In this document: piece by piece, positions 7,583 to 48,784 of the stretch
How positions within the stretch are numbered: the stretch's first letter is position 1
Layout of the letters: every line of letters starts with the position of its first letter
Assembly: GCA_041663665.1 (NCBI GenBank)
Contig: JBAYMG010000006.1
Location: 1,918 to 65,917, forward strand
Length of the DNA: 64,000 nt
Origin: Candidatus Omnitrophota bacterium
GTDB lineage: Bacteria; Omnitrophota; Gorgyraeia; Gygaellales; Profunditerraquicolaceae
Reading direction: 5' to 3'
Notes under the pieces: generated by a model
Seen by the model: the letters and a program-made list of their open reading frames with translations, nothing else
What the model was told of the DNA's origin: nothing
Database searches by the model: none
Made by a program: the position numbers and the translations under genes

Positions 7583-7584
7583 TT

Positions 7585-14683: not shown

Positions 14684-14694
14684 TTTCTAGATAA

Positions 14695-21739: not shown

Positions 21740-21919
21740 GCACTCCCCCGATATCCTTAATAAAAAAAGCAAGCTCTCATTTCTGGACCAAGTATTCCGA
21801 AACTTTCGGAAACCCAATAGCAAAAACTATTGCCATACTTTCACCCGGCATGAGAACCTGCTCTTCATTAATAATAATTATTTCAAAACAAACAATCTCT
21901 TTATCAATTAGATTCTAAT

Positions 21920-31729: not shown

Positions 31730-32080
31730 TTATTTACCGGCCTTAACCGTGATTTCTTTTAATAATTTCCCGCTGATACTGCAATAACCTTCGACAGATA
31801 GTATGTCGCCGTCTTTCACATCCGGAATCAGATAACTAACGGTTTGATTTTCAAAATTATCTTCCCTGGAAATAACCTGCTCAATAATCTCTTTACCATT
31901 TAAGCCTACATCAACCTTTTTAATATAATGAGTTAGCGGATTATTTGTATTGTGCATAATTATAGCTTTAAGTATTTTGGTATTTGGATCAAAATCAATC
32001 TTGATATCAGATGGCGGATGCGCATAAGCAGCTGAAACAACTGACATAAAAATAACCAAAAACATTACAATTTTTTTCAT
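31730..32080 (-). CDS. secreted hypothetical protein (116 aa, signal peptide)
   Basis: Signal peptide MKKIVMFLVIFMSVVSAAYA. Overlaps the upstream gene stop. Confidence 0.5.
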   Translation of the reverse strand: MKKIVMFLVIFMSVVSAAYAHPPSDIKIDFDPNTKILKAIIMHNTNNPLTHYIKKVDVGLNGKEIIEQVISREDNFENQTVSYLIPDVKDGDILSVEGYCSISGKLLKEITVKAGK

Positions 32081-32832
32081 ACCCGGCCTCCTTTGGTTAA
32101 TGATAATTTATTTAATAACGGAACAACGGCATTCATAGCCAACAAACTGAAAAGCTCAACATCAAACCTCGCTCCAAATTCAGTTAAAACAAAAATAAGC
32201 CCGGCAAGGCCTGCGCCGAAAAGATATTTTCCGATTGGTTTTACAGGTGAAGTCATTGGCTCAATGATCATAACAAATATATAAAAGTAACTTAATAAAC
32301 CAAAAATATTCCCCAAAGGAACCTTTTGATAAAATGCCTGAGTGCCGAATAATAATAAAGAAACAACAGCATAGCCGATAATTACTTCCGTTTTTCTAAT
32401 CCTCCGGGCAAAATAAAATCCAAAAGGTAAAAGCATGTACCAAAGATAGGTTCCTTTCCACTGAGTAGAAGCGCCAAAAACAATAAGCGTCAAAAATATA
32501 CCACAAGAGGCTGGGTTAAATATATGCTTCTTCCGGAAACGAATTACATGCTTAGAGAGAATGGCTAAAAATGAAGCTGCTATAAATCTCCACCACGCTT
32601 GGTCACTGGCAAGCACATAACCGATAATTAATCCCGTGATAATTGAGCTTTCGGTTACCTGAAAAACTTTTGTCCGAAGATACAGGATAACTGACTCTAC
32701 TGTCAAGCTTGAAACAACAGCAATAAATACTCCCGACAGAAATACAGGATCTTTATCTTTAAGCGACAGAAAAAAGGCAAAACCAATTAAATAGAGAATT
32801 AACTGGGTTTTAATAGATTCAAGTTTTAGCAT
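32077..32832 (-). CDS. polytopic membrane protein, possibly NqrB/RnfD-like (short)
   Basis: About 8 TMs. The HIFNPASCGIFL motif resembles the FNPAL motif of NqrB/RnfD-family subunits. Assignment is tentative. Confidence 0.35.
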   Translation of the reverse strand: MLKLESIKTQLILYLIGFAFFLSLKDKDPVFLSGVFIAVVSSLTVESVILYLRTKVFQVTESSIITGLIIGYVLASDQAWWRFIAASFLAILSKHVIRFRKKHIFNPASCGIFLTLIVFGASTQWKGTYLWYMLLPFGFYFARRIRKTEVIIGYAVVSLLLFGTQAFYQKVPLGNIFGLLSYFYIFVMIIEPMTSPVKPIGKYLFGAGLAGLIFVLTEFGARFDVELFSLLAMNAVVPLLNKLSLTKGGRV

Positions 32833-33848: not shown

Positions 33849-34053
33849 TTAATAACTCCCTTCTTAACGCCCCTTATCAACAAAAAAGCAACCCCCAATT
33901 TTAGAGATTGCCACTTCAATTAAACTTTAATCTGCTCTCATTTTCACCTCTTCATATTAAAATTATTCTATACCTTACTCCTTTGCTGTCAACCTTTTTA
34001 TGTAATACACAAAAGCTTTTAATATATTATATAAAAAAAACGAGCAGGCTAGA

Positions 34054-34728
34054 TTAGCTTTTTATCTTGCCTAATAATCTTAATAACCCATCGAGAATAG
34101 TTAAGGGATGCGGCGGGCATCCGGGAATAAAAAGATCTACTGGAATAATCGTCTCCAGGCCTCCAGACACTTCCGGACTGCCAAGAAAAATCCCCCCGGA
34201 GATCGCACAGCTTCCCACCGCAATAACAATCTTCGGGCCTGGCATTGCCTCATAAGTTTTTAAAAGAGCTTCTCTCATATTACGGGAAATAGGACCGGTA
34301 ACTACAATACCATCAGCATGCCGCGGAGAAGCCACAAATTGAATGCCAAAACGGCCTAGCGCAAAAACCGGGGTATTTAAAACATTCAAATCCAGCTCAC
34401 AGGAATTGCAGCCTCCGGCTGAAACTTGGCGCAATTTAAGTGAGCGGCCAAAAATCCTCAACATTTCCCGATTAAGTGCCGCAGCCAAGACCTTTTCATT
34501 TTTCGTAATAATCAAATGTTCCCGTTTCGCTGCAGCCATTCGATAATCATTCGAATATCTCACATCGCTATCCGGAATAAAAGTTATCTTTCCTATGTCC
34601 AAACTTTCCGGATCCCGGGCAATGATCGGACAACCTCGATAACGCGCAGGAAAACTTGGGGCGTTACCTTTGGGGAAAGGCAATGTCCGGCACCCTTGTT
34701 GAAATAATGTTTTAATAATCTTTAGCAT
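34054..34728 (-). CDS. NuoB / group-4 hydrogenase small-subunit-like protein (4Fe-4S), Ehr-type S subunit
   Basis: GGCNSCELDL, GSCAISGG and IPGCPPHP cysteines match the HycG/EchC type (CxxC rather than the NuoB CC). Extra N-terminal extension of about 80 aa. Confidence 0.85.
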   Translation of the reverse strand: MLKIIKTLFQQGCRTLPFPKGNAPSFPARYRGCPIIARDPESLDIGKITFIPDSDVRYSNDYRMAAAKREHLIITKNEKVLAAALNREMLRIFGRSLKLRQVSAGGCNSCELDLNVLNTPVFALGRFGIQFVASPRHADGIVVTGPISRNMREALLKTYEAMPGPKIVIAVGSCAISGGIFLGSPEVSGGLETIIPVDLFIPGCPPHPLTILDGLLRLLGKIKS

Positions 34729-34740
34729 TAATGTTTTATA

Positions 34741-36261
34741 CTATAAGTCGTGCCCGCAATAAGATAAATTAAAGCTCTTATTGCATAATGGAAAATCAGA
34801 AATTTCCTGGTTGCGCATTGCCAAACTTAAAGCCGGCCAATTATGAAACGATGGATCTTTAATCTTGTACCTGGACAAGTTCCCCTGGGCATCTGTAATA
34901 CCAACATGTGCAATTTCGCCTCTCCACCCTTCAACCAGAGATATTGCAAGTGTATCTTTTGCCATTGAAGTTACCGGTGTAAAAATTTCCCCGCTGGGCA
35001 AAGACGGTAAAATCTTCAACAAAAATTCCAAAGACCGCAGCACTTCCTGACGCTTTACCAGCGCCCGGGAATACACATCTCCTGTTACACCCAAAGAAAT
35101 AGGAACATGATGAAACTGCCACATCCCTGAGGAATAATTAATCCGCACATCAGTCTCTAGCTGACTGGCTCTGCCCGCAGGACCAACCAGGCCAAGCATT
35201 TTTGCATCTTTCATCGAGATCGAGCCGATATCTTCAAAACGAGCCAAAACTGAAGACTGGCTAAATAAAAGATCACTAACAGAATCAAACTCTTTCTTAT
35301 ACTCTTTAAGTTTACGGCAAAATTCATTGGACATAGCAGCATCAATATCAAACAAAACACCTCCTGGACGGCATAACCCTTTACCGAACCTGTTCCCGAC
35401 CAAAGAAAGTAATAAATTCAGGTAGTCGCCCCGCATGCGCCCAAAATATGAACTTGTTGGCAAAAAACCTGCATCCATTCCCATGGCTCCCAAATCGCCC
35501 ACATGATTGGCCAGCCTCTCAAGCTCTAAACCAACCGCGCGGACCGCCTGCGCCCGGGAAGGAATCAAGCATCCGGAAAGAGATTCAATAACTTCGCAAA
35601 AAGCTATAGAGTGACCAAGGGATGTATCTCCGGCAATAGACTCGCTCAAAAGAACACTGCGCTTCAAATCTTTTCCACACATTAAAGGCTCGATCCCGCG
35701 ATGTTGGTACCCAAGCTGAATCTCCAAATGCAAGATTTCTTCACCATGGCATTGAAACCGAAAATGTCCAGGCTCAATAATACCAGCATGCACCGGTCCA
35801 ACACCCACTTCATGAACTTCCTCGCCACCCACAAAATAAAAAGGATAAGAACCAGGAATAGTCCGCTGTTTAATATCCGGCCAAAGATCAGGCACACCGC
35901 GGTAATTGGCATGATAACGCAAAGGCTTAAGCCACGGATGGCCAACAGGCATAATTGCCCACTGCTCAGCAATCTCCCGTTCAAACAAATTAGCCTGAAG
36001 CAAATCCTTAGTTAGAGATTCATAGCTCGGATATTCAGACAGAATTTTAGTTGATAATATCTGCAGTCCTCCCCCCTCATCTTCCCCCAGAATCGCAAAC
36101 AAACGCACATCCTGCCTGTCTTCCGGGCTGCCGAAAAAATTAATTAACCGGGCATCTAAACGGCAACGACGGATCACCTCAGCACGGAATTCTTGCGCCG
36201 TAAGCAAAGGAACATCCGTCAATGCAATATTACCGCCATTAAATAATTCCATAGATTTCAC
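34741..36261 (-). CDS. NuoC-NuoD / HycE-like large subunit lacking the canonical [NiFe]-binding cysteines (Ehr-type L subunit)
   Basis: GPVHAGIIEPGHFRF and HRGIEPL signatures of group-4 large subunits. The position of the RxCGxCxxxH motif reads SIAGDTSLGH. The C-terminus is DFPLCNKSFNLSYCGHDL rather than DPCxxCxxH/R. Confidence 0.85.
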   Translation of the reverse strand: MKSMELFNGGNIALTDVPLLTAQEFRAEVIRRCRLDARLINFFGSPEDRQDVRLFAILGEDEGGGLQILSTKILSEYPSYESLTKDLLQANLFEREIAEQWAIMPVGHPWLKPLRYHANYRGVPDLWPDIKQRTIPGSYPFYFVGGEEVHEVGVGPVHAGIIEPGHFRFQCHGEEILHLEIQLGYQHRGIEPLMCGKDLKRSVLLSESIAGDTSLGHSIAFCEVIESLSGCLIPSRAQAVRAVGLELERLANHVGDLGAMGMDAGFLPTSSYFGRMRGDYLNLLLSLVGNRFGKGLCRPGGVLFDIDAAMSNEFCRKLKEYKKEFDSVSDLLFSQSSVLARFEDIGSISMKDAKMLGLVGPAGRASQLETDVRINYSSGMWQFHHVPISLGVTGDVYSRALVKRQEVLRSLEFLLKILPSLPSGEIFTPVTSMAKDTLAISLVEGWRGEIAHVGITDAQGNLSRYKIKDPSFHNWPALSLAMRNQEISDFPLCNKSFNLSYCGHDL

Positions 36262-36266
36262 CTTTT

Positions 36267-37676
36267 TTACGCACCCACTAAAACAGTCGCCGCACGCAGT
36301 ACATTAACCAACGGTGTCGGCATCCATATGCCAATACCCACTAAAGCTGCAATCGAAACGATAATAGCCGCATTCATAAAAAAATTCTCCTTATTGGCTA
36401 AAACCGGTTTTGTCGATGAGCCATAAACAATCTCCAAAACAATCCGGGCAATCCCAATAAAAATAAAAGCCAGGCAGATGATAAAAAGAGCAGCCAAAAT
36501 ATAATGTTGACCAATAATTACGGCATTCAGAATCATCAGTTCACTGTGAAACGTCGCAAAAGGGAACATTCCTGTTCCGGCCAAAAGCGAAACGATCAAA
36601 AACGCTCCCGTCAGCGGATAAACATGAATAACACCCTTTATTTTATCAACCGATGATGAGCCGTATTTCTGAGCAACCGATCCGGCAGTTAAAAACATAA
36701 TTGCCTTAGCTATTGCGTTGTTAATCATATGAAACAATGCGCCAAATACACCAACTCCTCCTAAAGCCAAACCCAAAACAAGAATACCCATATGTTCAAC
36801 CGAAGAATACCCAAACGCCCTTTTAATATTTTTTTCACCTAAAATAAAAATAGCCGGCACCAAAAATGATAACAAAGCCATCATAATCAGCATTGAAGAA
36901 TAAAACTGGCTCAATCCAGTCTTATTACATATCTGCGCGACTCTAATCAATGCCAAAAAAGCACATTGCGTTAATACTCCGGACATTAAAACCGCCACCA
37001 TTCCGGTGGCCTGCCCGTAAACCTCCGGTTTCCAACTATGCATTGGAGCTAGCCCCATCTTGCAGCCATAACCAACCAATAAAAAAATAACACTCAGCTT
37101 TAACCAATTCACTGTCAAAGATGCTGCGCCGTTTAAAAGCGCAGGTAAAAGAAGAGAATGTAAATCATGCGCGGCAATCGCTAAGAAAAATGTGCCCATC
37201 AATGCCAAGGCAATACCCACAGAACAAACCAATAAATACTTCCAGGTTACATCCAGAGTTTGCTGGTTACGATGAAAACTAATCAAAGGAGCACTGAGGA
37301 GTGTAGTTGTTTCAACCGCTATCCACAAAAGGCCCATATGGTAGCTAAGCGAAACAACAGTCATGGTTGATAACAAAATAAAAAGACAGGCAGTAAAAGT
37401 CCGGTTACTGCGTTGCTCATGCTTAAAATAACCAACCATAAAAACAGATACAATAAGAAAAAGGAAGCTCACAACTGATAACAGAATCAACCCTAAAGAA
37501 TCAAGCACTAAATAGCCGTTAAATTCTGAAACTGGAAGCTTAAGCCAAAACGAAGAAACAATAATGGAATGAATAAAGGACACCGCGCACAAAAGCCCTC
37601 CGCGGAAGATACGCCTCACCGGAAGAAAAACAGCAAACGCACAAAAAAGCGGCAGAAAAAGCAAGATTAACAGCAT
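36267..37676 (-). CDS. antiporter-like membrane subunit (NuoN/HyfF/MrpD-like)
   Basis: 469 aa, about 14 TMs, with a conserved charged pattern in TM7/TM12-like helices. Confidence 0.75.
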   Translation of the reverse strand: MLLILLFLPLFCAFAVFLPVRRIFRGGLLCAVSFIHSIIVSSFWLKLPVSEFNGYLVLDSLGLILLSVVSFLFLIVSVFMVGYFKHEQRSNRTFTACLFILLSTMTVVSLSYHMGLLWIAVETTTLLSAPLISFHRNQQTLDVTWKYLLVCSVGIALALMGTFFLAIAAHDLHSLLLPALLNGAASLTVNWLKLSVIFLLVGYGCKMGLAPMHSWKPEVYGQATGMVAVLMSGVLTQCAFLALIRVAQICNKTGLSQFYSSMLIMMALLSFLVPAIFILGEKNIKRAFGYSSVEHMGILVLGLALGGVGVFGALFHMINNAIAKAIMFLTAGSVAQKYGSSSVDKIKGVIHVYPLTGAFLIVSLLAGTGMFPFATFHSELMILNAVIIGQHYILAALFIICLAFIFIGIARIVLEIVYGSSTKPVLANKENFFMNAAIIVSIAALVGIGIWMPTPLVNVLRAATVLVGA

Positions 37677-38329
37677 CAGAAACTTTCCCCTGTCTCAGAG
37701 CGGCTCTCAGCAACCGGTGCACGCTCAAACTCCTCATTAATATGATTAATGATAATTGCCATAATAAAAACAGCGACAAAAATATCCAGCAGAATACCCA
37801 TTTCAATAAGAGTCGGCATGCCGTCAAATAATAATAGGGCAAATAGAAAAATCCCATTCTCCATAATCATATAGCCCAACACCTGGGTCACCGCCCGGGT
37901 ACGCGTAACCATAATCATAAAACCTAAAAGAACTGTTGAAAGCGAACATGGAAGAACTAAGTTAGAAACCGCTTTTCCCGGTAACTGCAATGATAAAGAA
38001 ACCCAAAATGCCCCTGCAATCAAAAGCGATCCAAGGATAATCGATAAACCAAACCCGATAAAAGGTTTAACTTCCGAACGTATCGAAACATGGCGGATAG
38101 CCCAAAGTAAAATATAAGGCACTAATATCCCCTTAAAAACTATCGTAACAATCGCAATGGCAATAACCCGGGCGGAAAGGGCTTCTGCATGCAGAAAAAA
38201 TGGCACGCAGCCTAAAACAAAAGACTGCAGTGCGAAAATATGGATCATACCGACAATACGGTACGTCGCAAGAATAGCCAGCGCAAAAAACACAATGAAA
38301 ATACAGCCGGCATCAATCCAAGCTGTCAT
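37676..38329 (-). CDS. small membrane subunit, HyfE-like
   Basis: 217 aa, 6-7 TMs. Size and position match HyfE/EhrC-like subunits. Confidence 0.55.
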   Translation of the reverse strand: MTAWIDAGCIFIVFFALAILATYRIVGMIHIFALQSFVLGCVPFFLHAEALSARVIAIAIVTIVFKGILVPYILLWAIRHVSIRSEVKPFIGFGLSIILGSLLIAGAFWVSLSLQLPGKAVSNLVLPCSLSTVLLGFMIMVTRTRAVTQVLGYMIMENGIFLFALLLFDGMPTLIEMGILLDIFVAVFIMAIIINHINEEFERAPVAESRSETGESF

Positions 38330-38332
38330 ACT

Positions 38333-39259
38333 TTACCCCCTCCAGATTGTAATGACAAAACCAAAAAATGCTAAAGCAAAAGCAATTAACAACAAATTCC
38401 TTACACGGTTAAGCCTCAAACGCGCCATCGACGACTCAATGACTCCGACCAAAACGGCTAATCCCAGCATGCCGGTTAAAAATATCAGCATATCTTTAAC
38501 CGGATTACCAGTCTGAAATGGAATAATCAATATCATAACCAAGATCCCAGAGAACAGAAAAAGTTTCACTGCCGAGGCATAATGCATATACGCCAAATCC
38601 ACCCCGCTGTGATCCAGGATCATAACTTCATGAATCATGGTTAATTCCAAATGAGTATCCGGATCATCAACAGGAATCCGGCAATTTTCCGCAAGAAGCA
38701 CGATAAAGAAACTGGCGACAACTAAAAGCAAAACGGGATCCAAATTCCAAGGTATCAAAATATTAACCCCGATCATTTCGGATAAAGAAATACTCTGGGT
38801 CAGGCAAGCAAGCGTAATAAAATTCATAAAAAGCGCTAATTCCGATAAACATGAAAAAAAAGCTTCACGGCTGGCACCAGCGCCTTCCAGGCTTAGCCCG
38901 GTATCCAGGGCCGAAGCAATCATAAAGAATCTGGACAAAGCAAGCAAATAAGCCAATAAAAGGATATCTCCTGAAAACTGTAGAGGCGCCTTAAGTATAC
39001 CTAACGGTATTTCGAGAGAAACAACAAATACCGAAGCTAAAGCAACAACCGGTGCAGCTCGAAAAACCCAGGATGTAGTTTGGCTATAAATACACTGCTT
39101 CCGAGAAAGTTTAACCAGATCAAAATACGGCTGAAAAACCGAAGGCCCCTTCTTCCCGGCAAAGAATGCTTTAACCTTAACAACCAGGCCGACAAACAAC
39201 GGCGCAAGCAAAAATACGAATAACCAATGAATCAGAATTAAAAAAATACCAATCAACAT
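38333..39259 (-). CDS. NuoH/HycD-like membrane subunit
   Basis: FFAGKKGPSVFQPYFDLVKL matches the NuoH/HycD N-terminal signature; 8 TMs. Confidence 0.85.
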   Translation of the reverse strand: MLIGIFLILIHWLFVFLLAPLFVGLVVKVKAFFAGKKGPSVFQPYFDLVKLSRKQCIYSQTTSWVFRAAPVVALASVFVVSLEIPLGILKAPLQFSGDILLLAYLLALSRFFMIASALDTGLSLEGAGASREAFFSCLSELALFMNFITLACLTQSISLSEMIGVNILIPWNLDPVLLLVVASFFIVLLAENCRIPVDDPDTHLELTMIHEVMILDHSGVDLAYMHYASAVKLFLFSGILVMILIIPFQTGNPVKDMLIFLTGMLGLAVLVGVIESSMARLRLNRVRNLLLIAFALAFFGFVITIWRG

Positions 39260-39263
39260 AGAT

Positions 39264-41093
39264 TTATCTCATTTTCCAAACTAACAAAAATATTAAAAAC
39301 AAAAAGATGTACATTAAATAAATCTGGGTATATCGAATACGGCCATCATCAATCTTTTTAGAAAGAATGGCCAACCTGGAAAACAATGGACGAAATACAA
39401 AATCTTCAGCAGCATCACGCACCAAAGAATGCATCTGTGTCGGCAAAGGAAAATCCCCCTTCACTCGGCCACCATGGCGGCGTAAGAATAAAATATTTTT
39501 CACAAAATCCAAAATAGAATGCGCAAAGGAAGAAGACGTATACTGAAATCTAGAAGTCACTTGCGAAAAACCGCAGCTCCAAGTTTCCAAACGTGAAATT
39601 ACTAAAACCGGAGTTTTCTTTAATAAGTGCCGGCGTAAAAATATTAAAAACAAAACCAGCACAAGAAAGATAAAAAAACCGTTATTAACCATCGAAAGCG
39701 AAACTAAAATTCCTGAAAAATTAATACTCGAAGCTGCCACATGCGACAAGTATTCCCCAGCTAAAATAACTAAATTTACCGCGTATTTCGGGACAAAACC
39801 AATCCAGATGCAAAGCCCAGCCAAAACCAACATCGGGGCAATCATCAAAGGGGATGCCTCCCTCCTTATCGACAACACCAATTCTTTGCGTAATTTGCCT
39901 AAAAAAACAGTGCCATAAACCTTGGTGAAACATGCTAAGGCCAACGCCCCCATCAAAGCTAGAAATAAAATACCCAAAACACAAGCCACCATTCCAGCTA
40001 AAGGCAAAGTCAATAACCCCTGGAACAATCCGAAAAAAATAATAAATTCACTGATAAACCCATTAAACAATGGCAGCCCGCAAATAGCCAAAGCACCGAC
40101 AAGAAATAATGCACTGGTAATCGGCATAGACTTGGCTAATCCGCCTAATTGATCCAGCTGTCCGGTATGAGTTTTTTGAATAACAGAACCTGCGCCCAAA
40201 AACAAAAGCCCCTTAAAAATAGAATGATTTAAAACATGGAGCAACCCCCCCGCAAAACCAATAGTCGCAAGCAAAGGCAAAGCGTAACTCCGCCCCAATA
40301 AACCAACACCGAGTCCCAAAGCAATAATCCCGATGTTTTCAATACTGTGATAGGCTAAAAGTTGCTTAAGCTCATGCTGCCCTAAAGCATACAAAACACC
40401 CATAATCCCAGACACAACACCTGTCATGAGAAGCATATACCCGCACCAATCAGGAAATACGCCAACCATCCATAAAACACGGCAGATCCCATATATACCG
40501 ATCTTAATCGCCACCCCTGATAAAAGCGCAGAAACATGAGCTGGAGCTGCGGGATGAGCATGCGGCAGCCAAATATGTACCGGCAAGAAACCAGCCTTAA
40601 CACCAAAACCAAACAAAGCTAAAATAAAAACTGTACCGGCTAAAACCGGAGATAAATTCACCCGCGAGATCAAATCAAAGTTCATTGAGCCTGCTGCATG
40701 CGAAAGTAAAAAAAACATAATAAAAAGGAGAAATGTCCCGCAATGAGCCATGGCCAAATATAGAAAACCCGCTCTACGCACAGAGGCCTGCTCATCATCA
40801 AAGATAATCAGGAAGTATACCGCAATCGACATTGTTTCCCAGGCGCCTAAAAAAAGAATTACATTGTTAGCTGTAACAATAACAACCAACGCCAGTACAA
40901 GCAGGCAATAAAAAAAGATGTGTGCCCCAAGAGGCTTCTTCCCTTTATATGGCTGCAAATAACCTGCGGCATAAATCCCGGAACAGGCAACTAGAATGAA
41001 AATGCAAATTAAAAATAATAAGCTAAGCGGATCAACCTTAAACGAGATTTCTCCAAACGGAACCTGCCAGGGCAATTGAAAAATATTTTTCAT
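39264..41093 (-). CDS. NuoL/HyfB/HycC-like antiporter-like large membrane subunit
   Basis: 609 aa, about 16 TMs, Mrp/NuoL-type core. Confidence 0.85.
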   Translation of the reverse strand: MKNIFQLPWQVPFGEISFKVDPLSLLFLICIFILVACSGIYAAGYLQPYKGKKPLGAHIFFYCLLVLALVVIVTANNVILFLGAWETMSIAVYFLIIFDDEQASVRRAGFLYLAMAHCGTFLLFIMFFLLSHAAGSMNFDLISRVNLSPVLAGTVFILALFGFGVKAGFLPVHIWLPHAHPAAPAHVSALLSGVAIKIGIYGICRVLWMVGVFPDWCGYMLLMTGVVSGIMGVLYALGQHELKQLLAYHSIENIGIIALGLGVGLLGRSYALPLLATIGFAGGLLHVLNHSIFKGLLFLGAGSVIQKTHTGQLDQLGGLAKSMPITSALFLVGALAICGLPLFNGFISEFIIFFGLFQGLLTLPLAGMVACVLGILFLALMGALALACFTKVYGTVFLGKLRKELVLSIRREASPLMIAPMLVLAGLCIWIGFVPKYAVNLVILAGEYLSHVAASSINFSGILVSLSMVNNGFFIFLVLVLFLIFLRRHLLKKTPVLVISRLETWSCGFSQVTSRFQYTSSSFAHSILDFVKNILFLRRHGGRVKGDFPLPTQMHSLVRDAAEDFVFRPLFSRLAILSKKIDDGRIRYTQIYLMYIFLFLIFLLVWKMR

Positions 41094-41776
41094 TAAACTT
41101 TCCTTACTGACTTTGATTCTGCAACATGAAACGCGACAAGGATCTCTTCTCTGCTTACCTTGCGGCTTAATGCTGACTTAACACCTTCATCCTGCAGACA
41201 AAAAACCAGGCGCGATAATAATGATAAATGCTCTTTAAAAGAAGAAGACAAGATTACGAATAACGTATGCACGAACTCTCCATCTAAAGCAGAAAAATCA
41301 ACCGGCTTCTCCAAAAAAAATAGCCCAATCACCGGATCCATACCCGCAAAAACAACCGGATGCTTAACATGTGGAATAGCAATCCCATTGCCGATACCGG
41401 TAGTCCCGGCCTGCTGGCGGGATAAAAGCATTTCCTTTAATGGATTTTTTTGAACTTGCTCAGGCAAGGGCAAAAAATCCAGGACTTTATCCAAAATATC
41501 TCCACTGCTAGAACCTTTTAACCCGGAATAAACTCCCCCTCGCATAATAGCCGAAGAAACAGGATCCTGTCCGTGCCGGCTATTCTCACATAACTTCAGC
41601 ACTCCGGAAGTTAAAAGAATCCGCTTCTTTAAAGCCCACTCTAAAACTTCCACGGAATTAAAATAATACTGATCATTCGCCCTTAAGGCCGGCATTCCCT
41701 GGTTATTCAACCACTGGTAAAGAATCCTCTCTTCGATCTCAAACGCTTTTTCTATATCATGGAAAGTCAGTTGCAT
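41093..41776 (-). CDS. HTH (excisionase/MerR-like) domain fused to PTS EIIA type-2 (EIIA-Ntr/PtsN-like) domain
   Basis: N-terminal MQLTFHDIEKAFEIEERILYQWL helix-turn-helix. C-terminal GNGIAIPHVKH with the phosphorylatable His. Stop overlaps the first gene of the Ehr-like module. Confidence 0.7.
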   Translation of the reverse strand: MQLTFHDIEKAFEIEERILYQWLNNQGMPALRANDQYYFNSVEVLEWALKKRILLTSGVLKLCENSRHGQDPVSSAIMRGGVYSGLKGSSSGDILDKVLDFLPLPEQVQKNPLKEMLLSRQQAGTTGIGNGIAIPHVKHPVVFAGMDPVIGLFFLEKPVDFSALDGEFVHTLFVILSSSFKEHLSLLSRLVFCLQDEGVKSALSRKVSREEILVAFHVAESKSVRKV

Positions 41777-41781
41777 AAATT

Positions 41782-42120
41782 TTACCCCTCTCGGACAAGC
41801 CTTTCCAAAAGTTTTCCACTTCGCTTAAATTTCTTTCTCAACAACTCAGCAATGGGGCGCAGTATCTTAAAAACATCGCGATCGAGTAGCCGGTAATACA
41901 CGCTTTGTTTCTCCTGTCTGGCCGAAAGAATCCCCAAATCACGTAAAATTGCCAAATGACGCGATAAGCTCGACTGTTCGACTCCTAACTCTAGCACAAG
42001 CTTACCAACAGCAGCCTCTCCAGCCCTAAGGTATTCAATAACCTGAAGCCGGACAGGATGCGACAAACCCCTTAAGAAGTCAGCCTTAATTTTAAAAACC
42101 ATGTCATCGCCGTTTTTCAT
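41782..42120 (-). CDS. ArsR/SmtB-family transcriptional regulator (no metal-binding Cys motif)
   Basis: HPVRLQVIEYL...SSLSRHLAILRDLGIL winged HTH. Confidence 0.85.
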   Translation of the reverse strand: MKNGDDMVFKIKADFLRGLSHPVRLQVIEYLRAGEAAVGKLVLELGVEQSSLSRHLAILRDLGILSARQEKQSVYYRLLDRDVFKILRPIAELLRKKFKRSGKLLERLVREG

Positions 42121-42291
42121 TAATCCCTCCCTTAAGCCTTCTCTCCTTTTAAAAATACCTTAGGCTTTTGCCCAACCTGGCGATTAATTTTATCGAATAA
42201 ACCAGCCGCAGCAAAAAAACAACGGCCATTAAATTAACGCCTATTATATGTCAATTTTGTAATATGTAAATGTATATTATTTATAACAATT

Positions 42292-42735
42292 TCACTTATC
42301 CTGCCTGGCAGATTGTTGTAAAATCTGATTTGCAGCACAGGCGTCATCATCCTGATCATCGCCGCTTCCGGCATTAAGATTAGCCGGATTACTCTCCAGC
42401 TTGATTATGTCATTATCCGAATACATTGCAACTTTATCTTGATATTTGTTTTGATAAATCTTGCCTTCAAAAACATTTCCCCAGACATGAATATCTTTCA
42501 ATTGTTTCGGATCAACTGCCAAAGGATCCTGTTGAAGAACAGTAAAATCGGCAAGCTTGCCCACAGCAATGCTGCCAATCTCTTTTTCCTTTCGCAAGAC
42601 AAAGGCAGCGTTAATGGTAATGGTTTTAAGCGCATCTTTAACGCTTATTTTTTCTTCGGTCCCGGCAACTTTGCCGGACATAGTCAAGCGATTTACCGCG
42701 CACCAGACAAGCGTAAGCGGACTAGCTGGCGCCAT
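42292..42735 (-). pseudogene. C-terminal remnant of an amidohydrolase-family gene with a low-complexity acidic tail
   Basis: The protein ends with the GKLADFTVLQQDPLAVDPKQLKDIHVWGNVFEGKIY motif typical of metal-dependent amidohydrolase C-termini. It lacks the roughly 300-aa catalytic barrel. A stop lies 4 codons upstream of the ATG. Confidence 0.45.
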
Positions 42736-42908
42736 TGGTGTGATTATACCACTTCCATTCCAAAATAAAAAGGCTATTGACCGTTATCAATCAATAGCCT
42801 GAATATATTCTAAATTTAAAAACGCAAATTCTTACAAACTACCAACAATATAAGAATAGGTCGATTCTCTCTTGCTAATGAAAAAGCCAATCTCCTTCTA
42901 AAAACTCT

Positions 42909-44435
42909 TTAGTGCTCCGACTTTATAAGCTTAGAACCCAGCAATGAAAGAACATTATCTTCAAAAGAATCCCGGCTAACTGGCCCGCGTTCATTCGAAT
43001 CCTCCTTAGCACCTCCGCCCAGTACCGCATAAATCCTAACTTCGTTTATAAGCTTAGTCAGTTGCATAGTAATAAGCCCTTGTTCTGCGCCATAAAGCGA
43101 ACGCTGTGCATCAAGGACACTTAAATAGTTATCAATCCCATTTGTATAGCGTTTATTTGAAAGCAGATAAACTTTCTCTGCAGAATCAACCATCGACTGT
43201 TGCGAAGCTATTTGTTGATCCACCGTACCTTTTACGGCAAGGACATCAGCTACTTCCTTAAAAGCCGTCTGAATAACTTTCTCATATTGGGTCAATGCGA
43301 TTTTTCTATCCGCCTGGCTAACCCGATATGCCGCCCATGTGCGGGCATCAAAAATCGGCATCACCACCTGCGGTGCGTAAGTCCACGTACCCTTGCCGGC
43401 TTTAAACAAACCTGAAAACTCATTGCTTGCCGAACCCAGGGTAGTTGTTAACGAAATACTCGGGAAGAAAGCAGCTCGAGCTGCCCCAATATTAGCATAA
43501 GCGCCTTTTAACTGATGCTCCACAGCCATAATATCCGGACGCCTAAAAAGCACCTCGGAAGATAAACCGGGATAAATATCCATAAGCGGACTAACACCTG
43601 TCAAATCAGAAGGTAAAAGATCTTCCGGCACCAAAGAACCAGCCAAAAGGTCTAACGCATTTTGATCCTGTGCTTCCTGCTGTATATAACTCATAACATT
43701 AACCATCGCTGTATCCACCTGAGTTTGCGCCCGGCGTAAATCTATTTCTTGCGCAATCTTAACTTTATATCTGCGCAATACTAAATTATAAGCACTTCTC
43801 TGCGCCTCAAGGGTAGACCGAGCCAGATTAAGATTTGCCCGATCCGCAGCAATGGTTAGATAAACCCTGGCAACTTCAGACACCAGCGTAATCTGGGCAC
43901 TACGCCGGGCCTCTTGCGTACCCAGATAATCTTGCAATGCCTGTTCTTTCAGGCTGCGGATACGGCCGAAAAAATCAATCTCCCAGGCAGTAATACCTAA
44001 ATCAACACTGTACTGGTTAATTGTCCTGGAAGCTCCAGGACTAACAAAATCGGAAGAATAACGTTGTTTAGCTTGTCCTCCCTCCAGATTAACAACTGGA
44101 AGCAGCTTGGCCCGTTGAACCCCATACAAAGCACGCGCCTTTTCCACATTTAAAACCGCAAGCCGCAAATCCCGGTTGTTATCAAGAGCCATCTTGATAA
44201 TTCTTTGCAGTTTTGAATCAGTGAAAAATTCCTGCCACCTCATTTGCGTAACATCTGAAACTTTAACCTTCGGCTGTGCCTTTAAATAAGCAGCACCGCT
44301 TGGCCATTGGTCAGCAACCGGAGCTTTCGGCTGGCTATATTTAGGAATCATAGTACAGCCGCTTAAACAAATAACCATGCCTAAAATTAAAACAAGTACT
44401 CGCCTCATATTATTGTTTTTTACCCGGCCCAACAT
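42909..44435 (-). CDS. RND-efflux outer-membrane factor lipoprotein (NodT/OprM family)
   Basis: Lipobox LSGC with two OEP repeats. The start is probably MRRVL at 44408. Confidence 0.85.
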   Translation of the reverse strand: MLGRVKNNNMRRVLVLILGMVICLSGCTMIPKYSQPKAPVADQWPSGAAYLKAQPKVKVSDVTQMRWQEFFTDSKLQRIIKMALDNNRDLRLAVLNVEKARALYGVQRAKLLPVVNLEGGQAKQRYSSDFVSPGASRTINQYSVDLGITAWEIDFFGRIRSLKEQALQDYLGTQEARRSAQITLVSEVARVYLTIAADRANLNLARSTLEAQRSAYNLVLRRYKVKIAQEIDLRRAQTQVDTAMVNVMSYIQQEAQDQNALDLLAGSLVPEDLLPSDLTGVSPLMDIYPGLSSEVLFRRPDIMAVEHQLKGAYANIGAARAAFFPSISLTTTLGSASNEFSGLFKAGKGTWTYAPQVVMPIFDARTWAAYRVSQADRKIALTQYEKVIQTAFKEVADVLAVKGTVDQQIASQQSMVDSAEKVYLLSNKRYTNGIDNYLSVLDAQRSLYGAEQGLITMQLTKLINEVRIYAVLGGGAKEDSNERGPVSRDSFEDNVLSLLGSKLIKSEH

Positions 44436-47400
44436 TCAAATCTCCGATAGTAACAGGTTGCTGCTGTTTGTTCTTAAGGCTAGATATAATAATAAAGAAT
44501 AGCGGAATAAAAATAAGGTCGATAAATGTAGCTGAAATCATACCCCCGGTAACTGCCGTACCAATAGCATTCATGGCTCCGGCGCCTGCGCCAGTGGCAG
44601 TAGCCAAAGGCAGAGTTCCAAAGAAAAACGCCAGCGATGTCATGATAACCGGACGAAATCGGATTCTTACTGCCGCAAGAGTTGCTTCTACAAGCCCTAG
44701 CCTCTGATGCTGCATCTGTTCTTTTATAAACTGAATAATTAAAATTGCGTTCTTGGTTGAAAGCCCCATCGTCGTCAAAAATCCAATCTGGAAATAAACA
44801 TCATTAGGCAGACCGCGTAGGAAAGTTGCCATCAACGCACCAAACACGCCTAAAGGCAACATCAATAAATTGACAAAAGGAATGCTCCAGCTTTCATACA
44901 ACGCCGCCACACAAAGAAAAATTACTAGAATCGAAAACAAATAAAGTATTGGCCCCTGAGAAGTTGCCATTCGTTCCTGGTAAGAAAGCCCCGCCCAATC
45001 ATAACCAATACCTTTCGGCAATTTCGAAGAGATATCCTCCATAGCCTGCATAGCCTCACCGGAACTCCGATGCAAAGCAGGTTCACCCCAGATATTCAAA
45101 GAAGAGAATCCGTTAAAACGTTCCAACTGAGGAGAACCATACGTCCATCGCGTCGATGCAAACGATGTAAATGGAACCATTTTACCTGTGGTATTACGGA
45201 CATATAGTTTCTCTAAATCTTTAGGAAGCATACGATAAGGAGCATCAGCTTGAACATACACTCGCTTGACCCGTCCAGACTGAATAAAATCATTGGCATA
45301 CGCGCCGCCAAAAGCTGCCGAGATAGTGTTATGAATAGAATTAATAGGAAGACCTAAAACACCCGCCTTTTCCCAATCCACATCTACCCGAAACTGAGGC
45401 ACGTCTTCCATACCATTAGCCCTAACACTAGCTAACCGCGTATCCTTAGCCGACAGGTCAAGCAGCTGATTACGAGCATCCATCAAAGCCTCGTGGCCGA
45501 GTCCACCTCTGTCCACCAATTGAAAATCCACCCCTTGAGCATTACCTAACTCAATAACCGCAGGTGGAGAGAAAACAAAAACCGTGGCCTTACGGATATT
45601 GGGCGAAAAATTCTTCATGGCTCTTGCCGCTATAGCCTTAGCTTTCAAATCTTTCCGGGAACGCAGTTTCCAATCTTTTAATTTGACAAACACCATGCCA
45701 TTATTTTGTGCTCTTCCGGAGAATCCTGCGCCGGCAATCGTCATACAGGATTCAACTGCCTCCTTTTCATTATCTTGAAAATAACGCTGAACATCATCGG
45801 CAACAATCCGAGTCTGCTCAAGAGTAACTCCTGTTGGCATAAGAATCTGCGCCAATAGCATGCCCTGATCTTCATCCGGTATATATCCCGTAGGTAACCG
45901 AAAAAATAGAAAGCAAATCGTTCCCAAAATCACAACATAAACAAACAGATAACGCAATTTCTTAGTTAAAGAATGCCTTACAATCCAGACATAACCATCC
46001 CTAATCTTGAAAAAGACGCGATCGAACCAAAGAAAAAACGGGCGCAGGAACCAAATAGCATTTTCCGCTGACTCATGGCCTCTAGGAACAGGCTTAAGCA
46101 ATGAGGCACAAAGTACCGGAGTCAAAATCAAAGCAACAATCACAGATAAAATCATGGAAGCAATAATGGTAACAGAAAACTGGCGATAAATAACACCCGT
46201 AGATCCGGCAAAAAATGCCATAGGGCCAAAAACCGCCGCCAGCACCAAACCAATACCAATCAGGGCACTAGTGATCTGCCCCATAGACTTAGCAGTAGCA
46301 TCCCGAGGAGAAAGCCCCTCCTCGCTCATAATTCTTTCTACATTTTCCACTACAACAATAGCATCATCCACCAATAAACCGATAGCCAACACCATCGCAA
46401 ACATGGTTAACATATTGATTGAGAAACCGAACAAACCTAACACTGCGAAGGTACCCAAAAGAACCACTGGTACTGCAATAGTCGGAATCAGCGTAGCCCG
46501 CAAGTTCCCCATAAACAAAAACATAACTAGAAAAACTAACAAAATTGCCTCAAGAAGAGTCTTAATTACTTCATCGATAGCTACCTTCACAAAAGGCGTA
46601 GTATCGTAAGGATACACTACCTTCATGCCTTGAGGGAAATACTGGCTCATCTCTTTCATTTTCGCCTTAATCGCATCTGCCGTATCCAACGCATTAGCTC
46701 CCGGAGCCTGACGAATAGCCATAGCAGCAGAAGGCTTACCATTATAAGAGCCTTCAACATCATAAGACTCAGTGCCCAATTCTGTCCTGCCAACATCTTT
46801 GATCCGTATAATGGAACCATCGGGATTAGTCCGAAGCGGAATATTGGCAAATTCATCCGGAGTCTGGAGTAAATTCTGAATAATAATCGAAGCGTTTAAG
46901 CGCTGGCCGGATACTGCCGGAAGGCCACCAAACTGACCAGAGGAAACCTCGACGTTATAAACCCGCACCGAGCCAATAATATCTTCCATAGTCAGTTTAT
47001 AATCATTCAGCTTATCAGGATTCAACCAAACACGCATTGAATATTGCGAACCAAAATTCTCAACTTCACCGACTCCGGGCACACGCGCTAACACCTTTTC
47101 CAGGTTAGACTGAGCATAATCCCGCAGATCATTACCATCCATGCTGCCGTCCTCCGAAATCAGGCCGACGATAATCAGATAATTACGCGTAGATTTGCTA
47201 ACCTTAACGCCTGAACGCTGGACCGCTTCCGGGAGACTAGCCATAGCAAGCTGGAGTTTATTTTGCACCTTGGACCAAGCAAGATCCGGATCAGCCCCGG
47301 CCCTAAAGGTTAATTCAATACGGGAAGAACCAGCCGAATCACTTTTTGCAGACATATAAAGTAAATCTTCAAATCCGGTCATCTTTTGCTCGATAATCTG

Positions 47401-47589
47401 AGTCACGGTATTTTCTACCGTTTCAGCTGAGGCCCCCGGATAAACAGAACTAATGGCAATAGAAGGCGGCGCAATAGGAGGATACTGCGATATGGGCAAT
47501 TGAGAGATAGACAATAAACCCAGTACCATCAAAATAATGGCAATAACCCAGGCAAAAACCGGACGATCAAGAAAAAATCTGGATATCAT
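44410..47589 (-). CDS. RND multidrug efflux permease (AcrB/MexB family)
   Basis: 1059 aa, 12 TMs and two large periplasmic loops with family-wide conservation. Confidence 0.95.
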   Translation of the reverse strand: MISRFFLDRPVFAWVIAIILMVLGLLSISQLPISQYPPIAPPSIAISSVYPGASAETVENTVTQIIEQKMTGFEDLLYMSAKSDSAGSSRIELTFRAGADPDLAWSKVQNKLQLAMASLPEAVQRSGVKVSKSTRNYLIIVGLISEDGSMDGNDLRDYAQSNLEKVLARVPGVGEVENFGSQYSMRVWLNPDKLNDYKLTMEDIIGSVRVYNVEVSSGQFGGLPAVSGQRLNASIIIQNLLQTPDEFANIPLRTNPDGSIIRIKDVGRTELGTESYDVEGSYNGKPSAAMAIRQAPGANALDTADAIKAKMKEMSQYFPQGMKVVYPYDTTPFVKVAIDEVIKTLLEAILLVFLVMFLFMGNLRATLIPTIAVPVVLLGTFAVLGLFGFSINMLTMFAMVLAIGLLVDDAIVVVENVERIMSEEGLSPRDATAKSMGQITSALIGIGLVLAAVFGPMAFFAGSTGVIYRQFSVTIIASMILSVIVALILTPVLCASLLKPVPRGHESAENAIWFLRPFFLWFDRVFFKIRDGYVWIVRHSLTKKLRYLFVYVVILGTICFLFFRLPTGYIPDEDQGMLLAQILMPTGVTLEQTRIVADDVQRYFQDNEKEAVESCMTIAGAGFSGRAQNNGMVFVKLKDWKLRSRKDLKAKAIAARAMKNFSPNIRKATVFVFSPPAVIELGNAQGVDFQLVDRGGLGHEALMDARNQLLDLSAKDTRLASVRANGMEDVPQFRVDVDWEKAGVLGLPINSIHNTISAAFGGAYANDFIQSGRVKRVYVQADAPYRMLPKDLEKLYVRNTTGKMVPFTSFASTRWTYGSPQLERFNGFSSLNIWGEPALHRSSGEAMQAMEDISSKLPKGIGYDWAGLSYQERMATSQGPILYLFSILVIFLCVAALYESWSIPFVNLLMLPLGVFGALMATFLRGLPNDVYFQIGFLTTMGLSTKNAILIIQFIKEQMQHQRLGLVEATLAAVRIRFRPVIMTSLAFFFGTLPLATATGAGAGAMNAIGTAVTGGMISATFIDLIFIPLFFIIISSLKNKQQQPVTIGDLNVGPGKKQ

Positions 47590-47655
47590 AGTTTTCTCCG
47601 TTTAATGCATATTCGAAATTATCCAAGCCACTCTCTTTAAACAACTAAAACTATC

Positions 47656-48759
47656 TTAGCCACCGGAGTCAAGCGGAACAATCTTTACTGAAATGCCAGG
47701 CTTTACTTTTTGAAGTCCCTCAACAATTATCCGGTCACCAGAATTAATCCCTGAAGAAACAAGCCATTTATCACCAATAGCCCGATCAAGCGTAAGCATC
47801 CGCTGCTGAACTTTACTTTCAGCATCTACAATTAGCGTAATAGGTTCGCCTTTCGGATTACGAGAAACTCCTTGCTGAGGAATAAGAATAGCCTGCTCAT
47901 TGACACCTTCTGTAATAATTGCCCGGACAAACATACCCGGTAAAAGAATATTTTTCGGATTTGGGAAAATCACCCGCAGAATAACTGAACCAGTAGTTGA
48001 ATCCACTGTAATATCCTGGAACTGAAAAGTCCCATCCAAAGGATACGGTGTACCGTCTCCTAGAATAAGCTTTACCTTATTCTGATTAGCTACATCATGC
48101 TTAAGGCGCCCATCCTCTAAACTACGCTCCAGGCGTAGTAACTCCGTAGTAGACTGTGGGATATCTACATAAATAGGATCTAACTGCTGAATAGTCGCTA
48201 AAGCTGTAGGTTGATATGCTGTCACAATATCGCCATCTGTTACAGTAGAAGCTCCAATACGGCCGGAGATTGGTGAAACAATTGTAGTATAATTAAGATT
48301 GATCTTGGCTGTTTGAAGCTCTGCTTCTGCTTGTTTTAAAGCGGCATCCGCATCATCAAATTCCTGCTGACTGACCGCTTTATCAATTAATGCTTCCTTA
48401 TAACGATCAGCTCTCAACTTAAGGGCAGGGAGATTAGCTTTGGCTTTATCAAATACTGCCTGAAATGGAGCCGGATCAATCTGATAAAGTACCTGGCCAG
48501 CCTTTATTTCAGAGCCTTCGATAAATAACCGTTTTTGAATAAGGCCATTGATCTGAGGACGAATTTCATCAACAAGAAAAGCAGCTGTGCGCCCAGACAA
48601 TTCAGTAGTCATAACTAACCGCTCAGGACGCATATAAACTACAGAGACCTTAGGGTCCTGAGGCAAAGATACATCCTTCTTTGTACAACCAGTTATCGTC
48701 GTCAAGGTCAAGAATAAAATACCCAGAAATAAAACAACGGGATTTAATTTACTTTGCAT
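47656..48759 (-). CDS. RND-efflux membrane fusion lipoprotein (AcrA/MexA family)
   Basis: Lipobox ITGC; MFP lipoyl, beta-barrel and MP domains. Confidence 0.85.
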   Translation of the reverse strand: MQSKLNPVVLFLGILFLTLTTITGCTKKDVSLPQDPKVSVVYMRPERLVMTTELSGRTAAFLVDEIRPQINGLIQKRLFIEGSEIKAGQVLYQIDPAPFQAVFDKAKANLPALKLRADRYKEALIDKAVSQQEFDDADAALKQAEAELQTAKINLNYTTIVSPISGRIGASTVTDGDIVTAYQPTALATIQQLDPIYVDIPQSTTELLRLERSLEDGRLKHDVANQNKVKLILGDGTPYPLDGTFQFQDITVDSTTGSVILRVIFPNPKNILLPGMFVRAIITEGVNEQAILIPQQGVSRNPKGEPITLIVDAESKVQQRMLTLDRAIGDKWLVSSGINSGDRIIVEGLQKVKPGISVKIVPLDSGG

Positions 48760-48784
48760 TTTTTCTCCAAGTAACATTGTATTG

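Follow-up and report, generated by a model that had tools for sequence, protein, structure and literature searches.

The window, i.e., the whole stretch of 64,000 nucleotides that was analysed, comes from a Candidatus Omnitrophota bacterium; a database protein 100% identical to the window's carries the same name. Between positions 34054 and 42120 it holds a run of genes, all on the minus strand, six of which encode the subunits of a membrane complex related to the membrane hydrogenases and to respiratory complex I. This complex is almost certainly an energy-converting-hydrogenase-related (Ehr) complex, orthologous to Geobacter EhrA/B/C/D/L/S and encoded with a dedicated regulator of the HTH-EIIA(Ntr) type.

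The gene of this regulator (41093..41776), an HTH_17-EIIA(Ntr)-type protein of 227 aa (PF00359, 67 bits), comes first; the codon of its His136 occupies 41369-41371. The subunit genes follow in the order: (i) EhrA, HyfB/NuoL-like and of the antiporter type (609 aa, 39264..41093; PF00361 and NCBIfam HyfB with 546 bits, below cutoff); (ii) EhrB, NuoH/HycD/HyfC-like (308 aa, 38333..39259; PF00146); (iii) EhrC, a HyfE-like (NuoK-related) membrane subunit (217 aa, 37676..38329; NCBIfam «hydrogenase 4 membrane subunit», 95.8 bits); (iv) EhrD, HyfF/NuoN-like and also of the antiporter type (469 aa, 36267..37676; PF00361 and NCBIfam HyfF, 286 bits); (v) EhrL, the NuoC-NuoD/HycE-like large subunit (506 aa, 34741..36261; PF00346 and a weak PF00329); (vi) EhrS, the NuoB/HycG-like small subunit (224 aa, 34054..34728; PF01058). 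An earlier note, made from the sequence without database searches, had read the same six-gene order (NuoL-, NuoH/HycD-, HyfE-, NuoN-, NuoCD/HycE- and NuoB/HycG-like), and the Pfam and NCBIfam matches agree with it. Neighbouring genes overlap or are 3-12 nt apart throughout 34054-42120; the stop of the EIIA gene and the start of ehrA overlap as TAATG. EhrL starts either at the GTG at 36261 (506 aa) or at the ATG at 36252, three codons on (503 aa, as in the public annotation).

Pfam and NCBIfam scans of the large open reading frames (ORFs) of the window gave no hyp and no formate dehydrogenase genes, as the earlier note had stated, and no further nuo genes outside the cluster. NuoA, NuoJ, NuoK and NuoEFG, or any alternative dehydrogenase module, were found neither in the cluster nor in the window. 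It should be kept in mind that the window covers 64 kb of the genome; genes for hyp, PTS-Ntr (phosphotransferase system), ferredoxin or quinone functions may lie elsewhere in it.

The closest solved relative of EhrL is HycE (7z0s_E, E = 1.7e-41) and not NuoD, and those of the NuoB-like domain of EhrS are MbhJ and HycG. NuoD is the top NCBIfam family for EhrL, with 170 bits against a cutoff of 360. EhrS passes the NuoB subfamily model NF005012 (123 vs. 116 bits), but all NuoD and NuoB equivalog scores remain under their cutoffs.

A scan of one genome per GTDB species, seeded with an alignment that contained only large subunits of this family, gave confirmed relatives in at least 596 species-level genomes. 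From them, 80 loci were kept for detailed comparison, and 120 homologues were used for residue counts.

The large subunit has lost the [NiFe] site. The N-terminal motif RxCGxCxxxH is replaced by ESIAGDTSLGH (35611..35643), which aligns opposite DRVCGICGFAHS, whether the comparison is with the HycE, MbhL and Nqo4 structures or, by MAFFT, with HycE and HyfG of E. coli. The C-terminal motif DPCxxCxx[HR] is replaced by SFNLSYCGHDL-stop (34744..34776), which aligns opposite SLDPCYSCTDR. The four positions of the Ni/Fe cysteines are thus A210, T213, S500 and G503, and none of them is a Cys in the 506-aa protein. The earlier note had claimed that SIAGDTSLGH stands where RxCGxCxxxH is expected, with both Cys gone, that the C-terminal motif is replaced as well, and that the complex appears not to be a hydrogenase; the alignments to HycE, MbhL, Nqo4 and HyfG give the same answer on each point. 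It had also named the case of CxxC pairs that are present but shifted, and this was not seen: the only candidate is C502 within the C-terminal motif, for which about half of the 120 homologues have Ala or Ser, and thus it is not a shifted ligand. The family motifs are E[ST]xAGDTxxGH and SFNLSY[CAS]G[HF]DL-stop; they are present in 80/80 loci with no Cys at the ligand positions, and the N-terminal one is kept in 115 of the 120 homologues. H504 is variable across loci (F/Y/N). The C-terminus of EhrL coincides with the end of mature HycE, i.e., the 32-residue extension of HycE is absent.

The quinone site of complex I is not found either. In the alignment with T. thermophilus Nqo4, the equivalents of Tyr87 and His38 are Gly211 and Ile162. 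The former [NiFe] pocket is characterized by conserved polar or acidic residues, namely E207, D212, T213 and H217. An AlphaFold2 model of EhrL is of low confidence over residues 131-186, 335-395 and 470-506 (predicted template modelling score 0.51) and is too poor where it matters.

In EhrS, two parts can be distinguished. In the NuoB/HycG-like domain (34054..34428) the Cys ligands of the proximal (N2-type) [4Fe-4S] cluster, C107, C110, C174 and C204, are all present, in agreement with the earlier note. They are invariant across the family, and the pattern is kept in 117/120 Omnitrophota homologues. The N-terminal part of about 100 residues (34429..34728) is also strongly conserved. A single-sequence search with the first 102 residues gave no match in PDB or Pfam; the relationship with HycF/NuoI is detectable only with profile methods and intermediate sequences. 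With MAFFT, this part aligns with both ends of E. coli HycF/HyfH, and the gaps fall exactly at the CxxCxxCxxxCP motifs. With hhalign, a profile of the Omnitrophota extensions only matches the HyfH/HycF/NuoI alignment with a probability of 96.6% (E = 5.6e-10), and again the gaps fall exactly on both motifs; eight control proteins, among them the ferredoxin-like HycB and HyfA, gave P >= 0.055. In other phyla most orthologues carry all eight Cys in an extension of about 135 residues, and there are continuous intermediates. The N-terminus of EhrS is therefore a cluster-less remnant of NuoI/HycF/HyfH, in which all eight cluster ligands and about 30 residues have been deleted and the flanking segments of the ferredoxin core have been kept. 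Its AlphaFold2 model is of low confidence (predicted local distance difference test below 50 over residues 14-79).

The Omnitrophota extensions contain 0-3 Cys, and both motifs are deleted in 119/119 full-length homologues. When all six frames of the whole window were scanned, no translated ORF showed a ferredoxin-type four-Cys motif; a loose four-Cys match at 36303 lies upstream of the start codon of ehrL, is untranslated and was rejected. The six-frame motif scan and the domain scans gave neither a ferredoxin-like subunit nor hyp genes elsewhere in the operon, the second case that the earlier note had named as decisive against its reading. Its statement that a NuoI/HycF-type subunit is absent needs correction in part: it holds for the Fe-S motifs and not for the domain, which survives as a remnant fused to NuoB.

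The loss of the relay differs between lineages. All eight Cys are present in about 47 of about 65 classifiable loci, or about 49 when the frameshifted L024 and L072 are counted; the unfused small subunits of these two loci are only apparent and result from frameshifts in eight-Cys fusion genes. The Omnitrophota clade has none of the eight ligands. Four Gemmatimonadota loci keep only Cys 1-3 of motif 1 and Cys 4 of motif 2. Geobacter, Geopsychrobacteraceae and Desulfobulbus keep only Cys 1-3 of motif 2 and Cys 4 of motif 1. Such a cross-over ligation is typical of 2x[4Fe-4S] ferredoxins. By analogy with T. thermophilus Nqo9, the first combination would presumably correspond to the distal (N6a-like) cluster and the second one to the proximal (N6b-like) cluster. 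The motifs of the large subunit are identical across lineages with differing relay loss. When the ligand positions are mapped on a neighbour-joining tree of the large subunit (built with no hydrogenase outgroups), the relay is seen to have been lost several times, independently and in different patterns, the rest of the complex being unchanged.

The membrane arm shows no comparable loss. EhrA retains the Glu of transmembrane helix (TM) 5, the Lys of TM7, the His/His/Lys of TM8 and the Glu of TM12; EhrD retains the TM5 Glu, the TM7 Lys, the TM8 His/Lys and the TM12 Glu. EhrA and EhrD are two antiporter-like subunits of the MrpA/MrpD type, and the channel residues of proton-translocating subunits of this kind are intact in both. 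EhrB has family-invariant charged residues in common with HycD/HyfC, including the acidic TM5-6 loop, and in EhrC the residues E157, E176 and D182 are conserved with HyfE. In six loci from Myxococcota, Planctomycetota and Gemmatimonadota (L028, L030, L043, L047, L050 and L052) the EIIA gene is followed by two EhrA-type genes in tandem; the number of antiporter-like subunits therefore varies within the family.

The name Ehr is about twenty years old. Ehr complexes are defined by a large subunit of the group 4 type without Ni/Fe-binding Cys (PMC6349859, PMC10284858); they lack the CxxC motifs and have no assigned function (PMC6349859, PMC10284858, PMC10432482). The published set of subunits is HyfB, HyfF, NuoH, HyfE, a NuoC-D fusion and a NuoI-B fusion (PMC6349859 Suppl. 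Note 4). The cluster in the window has this set, with the NuoI part as a cluster-less remnant only. The Ehr family, the NuoI-NuoB fusion and the absence of Ni/Fe ligands are thus already known. The assignment of the earlier note to the Ehr type is confirmed by the subunit set, the motifs, the gene order and the 46% identity of EhrL with that of Geobacter argillaceus. At the latter locus (L084) the small subunits are 49% identical, and the motifs and the order of the genes are the same as in the window.

The relatives span more than a dozen phyla; among the matches listed, they belong to Omnitrophota, Planctomycetota, Verrucomicrobiota, Kiritimatiellae, Lentisphaerae, Myxococcota, Desulfobacterota, Gemmatimonadota, Acidobacteriota, Spirochaetota, Fibrobacter, Riflebacteria and Hydrogenedentota. 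Ehr has also been described in Margulisbacteria, Saganbacteria, Nitrospira, the Candidate Phyla Radiation and ammonia-oxidising archaea. The gene order is common to all 80 loci, and a neighbour-joining tree of family sequences (with no HydDB references) places all of them in one family. EhrL is the most conserved subunit of the system: the identities of EhrL/EhrS are 74%/73% within Omnitrophota and 50%/50% between phyla, those between phyla being 38-43% for EhrA, EhrC and EhrD and 49% for EhrB. Since the large and small subunits are the most conserved ones even after the loss of the relay, the head is judged not to be vestigial and the cluster not to be a decaying relic. In Geobacter, EhrA/B/C/D/L/S (GSU0739-45) have been detected as proteins, and their physiological role has never been investigated (PMC7894505). 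A 2026 paper calls the Geobacter complex nonfunctional (PMC13194489); the strong conservation contradicts this label. The earlier note had stated that no physiological electron donor or acceptor is established for Ehr; in the literature searched, no function is assigned to it.

The HTH-EIIA gene is linked to ehr far beyond the window, namely in most of the other phyla that were sampled. Omnitrophota loci with 77%, 74% and 59% identity to EhrL of the window in the large subunit also have it directly 5' of ehrA. It is linked in 46/53 ehr loci with enough upstream DNA: upstream and on the same strand in 44 of the 53, and divergent in two Geobacter loci, where it lies directly 5' of a second ehrA. 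The reciprocal test was a metagenome scan seeded with a distant HTH-EIIA subgroup (more than 550 relatives; at least 400 nt of downstream DNA required), a first seed, an alignment of 40 EIIA sequences, being too diverse. An EhrA-type gene was found within 600 nt, on the same strand and 3' of the HTH-EIIA gene, in 56/64 loci, and 16 of the 19 loci with at least 5.5 kb of downstream DNA show the ehr set. A search for a sigma-54 promoter was negative: the -24/-12 element 5' of the EIIA gene is not enriched in 49 loci over random windows.

The HTH-EIIA family is a discrete one (795 representative clusters at E <= 1e-10, nearly all of about 230 residues and with full-length matches). The phospho-His motif GxGxAxPH, i.e., GNGIAIPH136 in the window, is invariant in 37 ehr-linked proteins. 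The HTH_17 match is weak in the window copy (17 bits) and reaches 66 and 32 bits in orthologues. The PtsN equivalog TIGR01419 gives 62.3 bits for a cutoff of 138.7; the Ehr-linked EIIA protein is therefore considered as a distinct HTH-fused family and not as a PtsN orthologue. Judged from its linkage, the HTH-EIIA gene is a dedicated and conserved seventh component of the Ehr system. No paper linking EIIA/PtsN to Ehr or to HyfB-type subunits was found in the literature searched. With respect to this literature, two results appear to be new: (i) the complete, lineage-wide loss of the NuoI clusters in Omnitrophota, with patterned partial losses elsewhere; (ii) the reciprocal linkage, across phyla, of ehr to a dedicated HTH-EIIA(Ntr) protein.

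A second EIIA module is present in the window. A CPA2-type Na+/H+ exchanger of 724 aa (16975-19149, minus strand) has a C-terminal PtsN-like EIIA domain with the GxGxAxPH motif, and its gene adjoins that of a P-type (type II/III-like) cation ATPase (19184-21823, minus strand). Because of this fusion it can be said that the organism attaches EIIA(Ntr) modules directly to cation/proton transporters.

The comparison with five known systems leads to the following picture. The Ehr complexes of Geobacter sulfurreducens (GSU0739-45) and of the other lineages in which Ehr has been described are like that of the window in the six subunit types, their order, the replacement motifs, both fusions and the proximal Cys. 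They differ in that the NuoI half of EhrS in the window is without all eight ligands and about 30 residues. The window also has one EhrA, against two in Geobacter, and lacks the IclR-like gene that separates ehrL from ehrS there; the EIIA gene of Geobacter is divergent and paired with the second ehrA. In L084, the EIIA gene and the second ehrA (1479-4153, minus strand) are divergent from ehrA-B-C-D-L, and the IclR-like regulator gene is at 11501-12380 (plus strand).

E. coli Hyf (HyfABCDEFGHI) and Hyc (7Z0S) provide the closest characterised relatives of every subunit of the window, i.e., HyfB, HyfC/HycD, HyfE, HyfF, HyfG/HycE and HyfH plus HyfI, with the same channel and coupling residues. 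Unlike them, the window has no [NiFe] site, no electron-input subunit HyfA/HycB and no HyfD; its HyfH part is cluster-less and fused to HyfI, and the window contains neither hyp/hycI maturation genes nor a formate dehydrogenase. Respiratory complex I and the 11-subunit complex-I-like enzymes have in common with Ehr the modular architecture, the N2-type ligands and the Glu/Lys/His/Lys-Glu pattern of the antiporter-like subunits. The window differs from them by the lack of the quinone-site Tyr/His, of the N6a/N6b ligands and of NuoA, NuoJ and NuoEFG, and by equivalog scores below cutoffs. Mrp antiporters also have two subunits of the MrpA/MrpD type with intact channels and, under the reading preferred below, would have the absence of redox input in common with Ehr. 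On the contrary, the NuoH-like subunit and the complete peripheral head of Ehr have no counterpart in Mrp, and of the small Mrp subunits only HyfE (NuoK/MrpC-related) is recognised in Ehr, MrpB, E, F and G not being identified. The fifth system, E. coli PtsN-YcgO, resembles the Ehr-linked regulator in its EIIA_2 fold family, in the GxGxAxPH motif and in the association with H+/cation translocation (PMC11808508). Unlike PtsN, the Ehr-linked protein has an N-terminal HTH_17 DNA-binding domain and is encoded in one operon with its presumed target.

On the basis of the observed gene content, ligand loss, relay loss, kept channel residues and conserved EIIA linkage, we infer ion translocation, independence from the electron wire and a regulatory logic. 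We tentatively prefer, at somewhat less than even odds, a reading in which Ehr is a cation/proton translocator under regulation and has no need of the canonical electron wire; it would be neither a hydrogenase nor a NuoD-type quinone reductase. In this scheme the Hyf-type membrane arm, with two antiporter-like channels and the NuoH- and HyfE-like coupling subunits, would still move H+ and/or Na+/K+. The relay being deleted, the single N2-type [4Fe-4S] cluster would not be fed through the canonical wire, and the core function would be independent of electrons arriving in this way; in principle Ehr would thus be Mrp-like. Two arguments lead to such independence: the relay can be lost in either pattern or wholly without relaxation elsewhere, and there is no conserved donor module and no Ni/Fe or quinone site. 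The head formed by the large and small subunits may act as a gating or sensing module, with the small-residue cavity around E207, D212, T213 and H217 beside the cluster. A phosphorelay of the PTS(Ntr) type would phosphorylate His136 of the HTH-EIIA protein and in this way govern the expression of the complex, possibly also its activity. For the regulatory part there are two precedents, the CPA2-EIIA fusion of the same window and E. coli PtsN, which binds and inhibits the K+/H+ antiporter YcgO (PMC11808508).

Several points weigh against this preference. About three quarters of the sampled lineages keep all eight NuoI-type Cys over very large distances, which argues for a functional role of the clusters in most organisms. 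A redox enzyme would be expected to keep its N2-type ligands, and these are invariant everywhere; it is also not obvious why a head that only regulates should be more conserved than all other parts. A phosphodonor (NPr/HPr, EI-Ntr) was not found in the window, which contains no HPr/NPr signature. The assignment of the N2-proximal cluster follows the ligation that we assume for T. thermophilus Nqo9. Finally, in Geobacter the Ehr proteins increase on formate, and a link with redox has been seen in this (PMC7894505).

The main rival, in our opinion a real but rather unlikely possibility, is a redox-driven ion pump with a shortened input. A soluble low-potential carrier, ferredoxin, would dock at the former NuoI core and reduce the N2-type cluster directly, and electron transfer to a substrate in the former [NiFe] cavity would drive H+/Na+ pumping as in Ech, Mbh and Mbs. 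The invariance of the N2 ligands, the high conservation of the large and small subunits and the intact coupling loops and channels are in favour of such a pump. Since most members have the full chain of three clusters, the ancestral function was probably redox. The deletion of about 30 residues takes away the ferredoxin core and leaves the flanks, so that it could leave a docking groove, and in one Omnitrophota locus (L003) the cluster is flanked by pyruvate:ferredoxin oxidoreductase genes. However, no acceptor site can be recognised, neither Ni/Fe ligands nor the quinone Tyr/His; the Gemmatimonadota forms appear to hold the distal cluster only, which would be unable to relay to N2; no ferredoxin or donor gene is conserved near ehr; and docking, in a region for which the AlphaFold2 model has low confidence, is purely inferential.

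The pocket of E207, D212, T213 and H217, all conserved, could also host a non-redox reaction coupled to the membrane potential, e.g., vectorial CO2 hydration or anion handling. We regard this as improbable. DAB and NDH-1MS/CupA, which use proton channels of the complex I type, provide an analogy. SulP-STAS genes (bicarbonate/sulfate-type) are upstream of ehr in L003, L004, L008 and L009, but the window is without this linkage and the hits outside Omnitrophota are weak or on the opposite strand. Moreover, there is no recognisable metal site like that of carbonic anhydrases, and H504 is variable.

Still less probable is a complex-I-like ferredoxin:quinone oxidoreductase, as would be implied by the use of PF00346 as a marker. 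EhrL matches PF00346 and, among the NCBIfam families, NuoD best; the cluster includes a NuoH-like subunit, and PMC10066038 counts PF00346 as complex I. Nevertheless the NuoD/NuoB equivalogs are under cutoffs, Tyr87 and His38 are replaced by Gly and Ile, NuoA, NuoJ and NuoEFG are found neither in the cluster nor in the window, and the nearest solved relative is HycE. A chorismate-binding enzyme of the window was tried as a clue to menaquinone and rejected, being PabB-like and not MenF. Least credible of all is an ordinary group 4 [NiFe] hydrogenase with shifted ligands, or a decaying non-functional relic as stated for Geobacter (PMC13194489): the homology and the gene order match Hyf/Hyc and C502 lies within the C-terminal motif, but no Cys stands at a ligand position in 80/80 loci or in the 115 of 120 homologues with a readable N-terminal motif, C502 gives way to Ala or Ser in about half of the homologues, hyp genes are missing from the window, there is no C-terminal extension for a maturation protease, and decay is excluded by intact operons with family-specific invariant motifs in at least 596 species-level genomes.

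If the regulated translocator is retained, a bolder form of it can be put forward, which we consider doubtful but possible. Ehr would be a complex-I-type machine without electron transfer as its driving reaction, i.e., a cation/proton translocator under the control of a phospho-His regulator of the PTS-Ntr type, with the former hydrogenase head as gate and at most a sensory Fe-S cluster. The forms of Omnitrophota and Gemmatimonadota would then be natural «wire-cut» experiments.

The other neighbours of the cluster are less informative. The earlier note had supposed that the unusual context may help to find the function; this holds for the HTH-EIIA gene, which is conserved, and not for the ArsR, RnfD-like and AsmA-like genes. 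The ArsR/SmtB-family gene (41782..42120, minus strand; PF01022 and NCBIfam HTH_metalloreg) ends 5 nt before the EIIA gene; apart from the window it occurs only in L003 and L008, two loci of close Omnitrophota relatives. In this lineage, and not elsewhere, the transcription unit probably begins with arsR. A promoter candidate of the sigma-70 type (42243..42270, minus strand) matches 11/12 consensus positions in the 171-nt gap 5' of arsR, and a second site, also 11/12 (33965-33992, minus strand), falls between ehrS and the AsmA/DUF748-like gene, which are 205 nt apart; both are defined by consensus match, the total count of such sites not being above that of shuffled sequences. The second site suggests that the genes downstream of ehrS form a separate transcription unit. 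An RNA leader or riboswitch was considered and rejected: Rfam gave no match in the window at gathering thresholds, none in 41000-43000 at E <= 1, and only tRNAs in 12 related loci.

The RnfD-like and AsmA-like genes recur in 0/85 related loci. The former encodes a membrane protein of the RnfD/NqrB family (251 aa, 32077-32832, minus strand) that scores far under the RnfD cutoffs. It overlaps by 4 nt with a gene for a 116-aa protein (31730-32080, minus strand) with a signal-peptide-like N-terminus and no family match, and neither of the two adjoins ehr in other loci. Upstream of arsR, an ORF of 147 aa (42292-42735, minus strand) matches the Amidohydro_3 profile over positions 379-470 of 472 only and looks like a truncated gene remnant between an efflux operon of the resistance-nodulation-division (RND) type and arsR.

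Clustering of all flank ORFs gave no conserved neighbour beyond the seven genes; mid-sized clusters were rejected as artefacts of antisense ORFs in high-GC genomes. Among the 80-odd loci compared, none of the electron-donor modules (formate dehydrogenase, NuoEF, HyfA, hyp) recurs in the neighbourhood of ehr. The (arsR-)EIIA-ehr genes of four Omnitrophota loci are directly preceded by a SulP-STAS anion transporter gene that reads in the same direction, the intervals being only 3-26 nt (L003, 2473-4125; L004, 2631-4316; L008, about 2280; L009, about 2723), and in L004 it is preceded by a gene for a CitMHS-type transporter. This linkage is not found in the window; with the weak or opposite-strand SulP-like hits from outside Omnitrophota, the total is 6 loci.

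At the scale of the whole window, nearly every sizeable ORF is on the minus strand and the GC skew is negative in 32/32 segments of 2 kb, in keeping with a window that lies in a single replichore and whose genes are strongly co-oriented. Three tripartite efflux systems, all on the minus strand, are found in these 64 kb: ABC-2 + HlyD + OEP (3568-9778), MacB-type ABC + HlyD + OEP (12710-16942) and RND (AcrB-like) + MFP + OEP (42909-48777).

Ehr stands at the evolutionary junction of the membrane hydrogenases and respiratory complex I, and it is present in a model organism, Geobacter. The patterned loss of the relay under strong constraint elsewhere restricts the core reactions that are possible. 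The HTH-EIIA(Ntr) component, previously unremarked and with an invariant phospho-His, provides a defined signal as a starting point for genetics and phosphotransfer assays. As to Omnitrophota, a survey of 2023 used PF00346 as a marker of «respiratory complex I» (PMC10066038). Since EhrL matches PF00346, published reconstructions of Omnitrophota may overstate classical respiration, and some of the Omnitrophota counted as complex-I-bearing may have Ehr instead.

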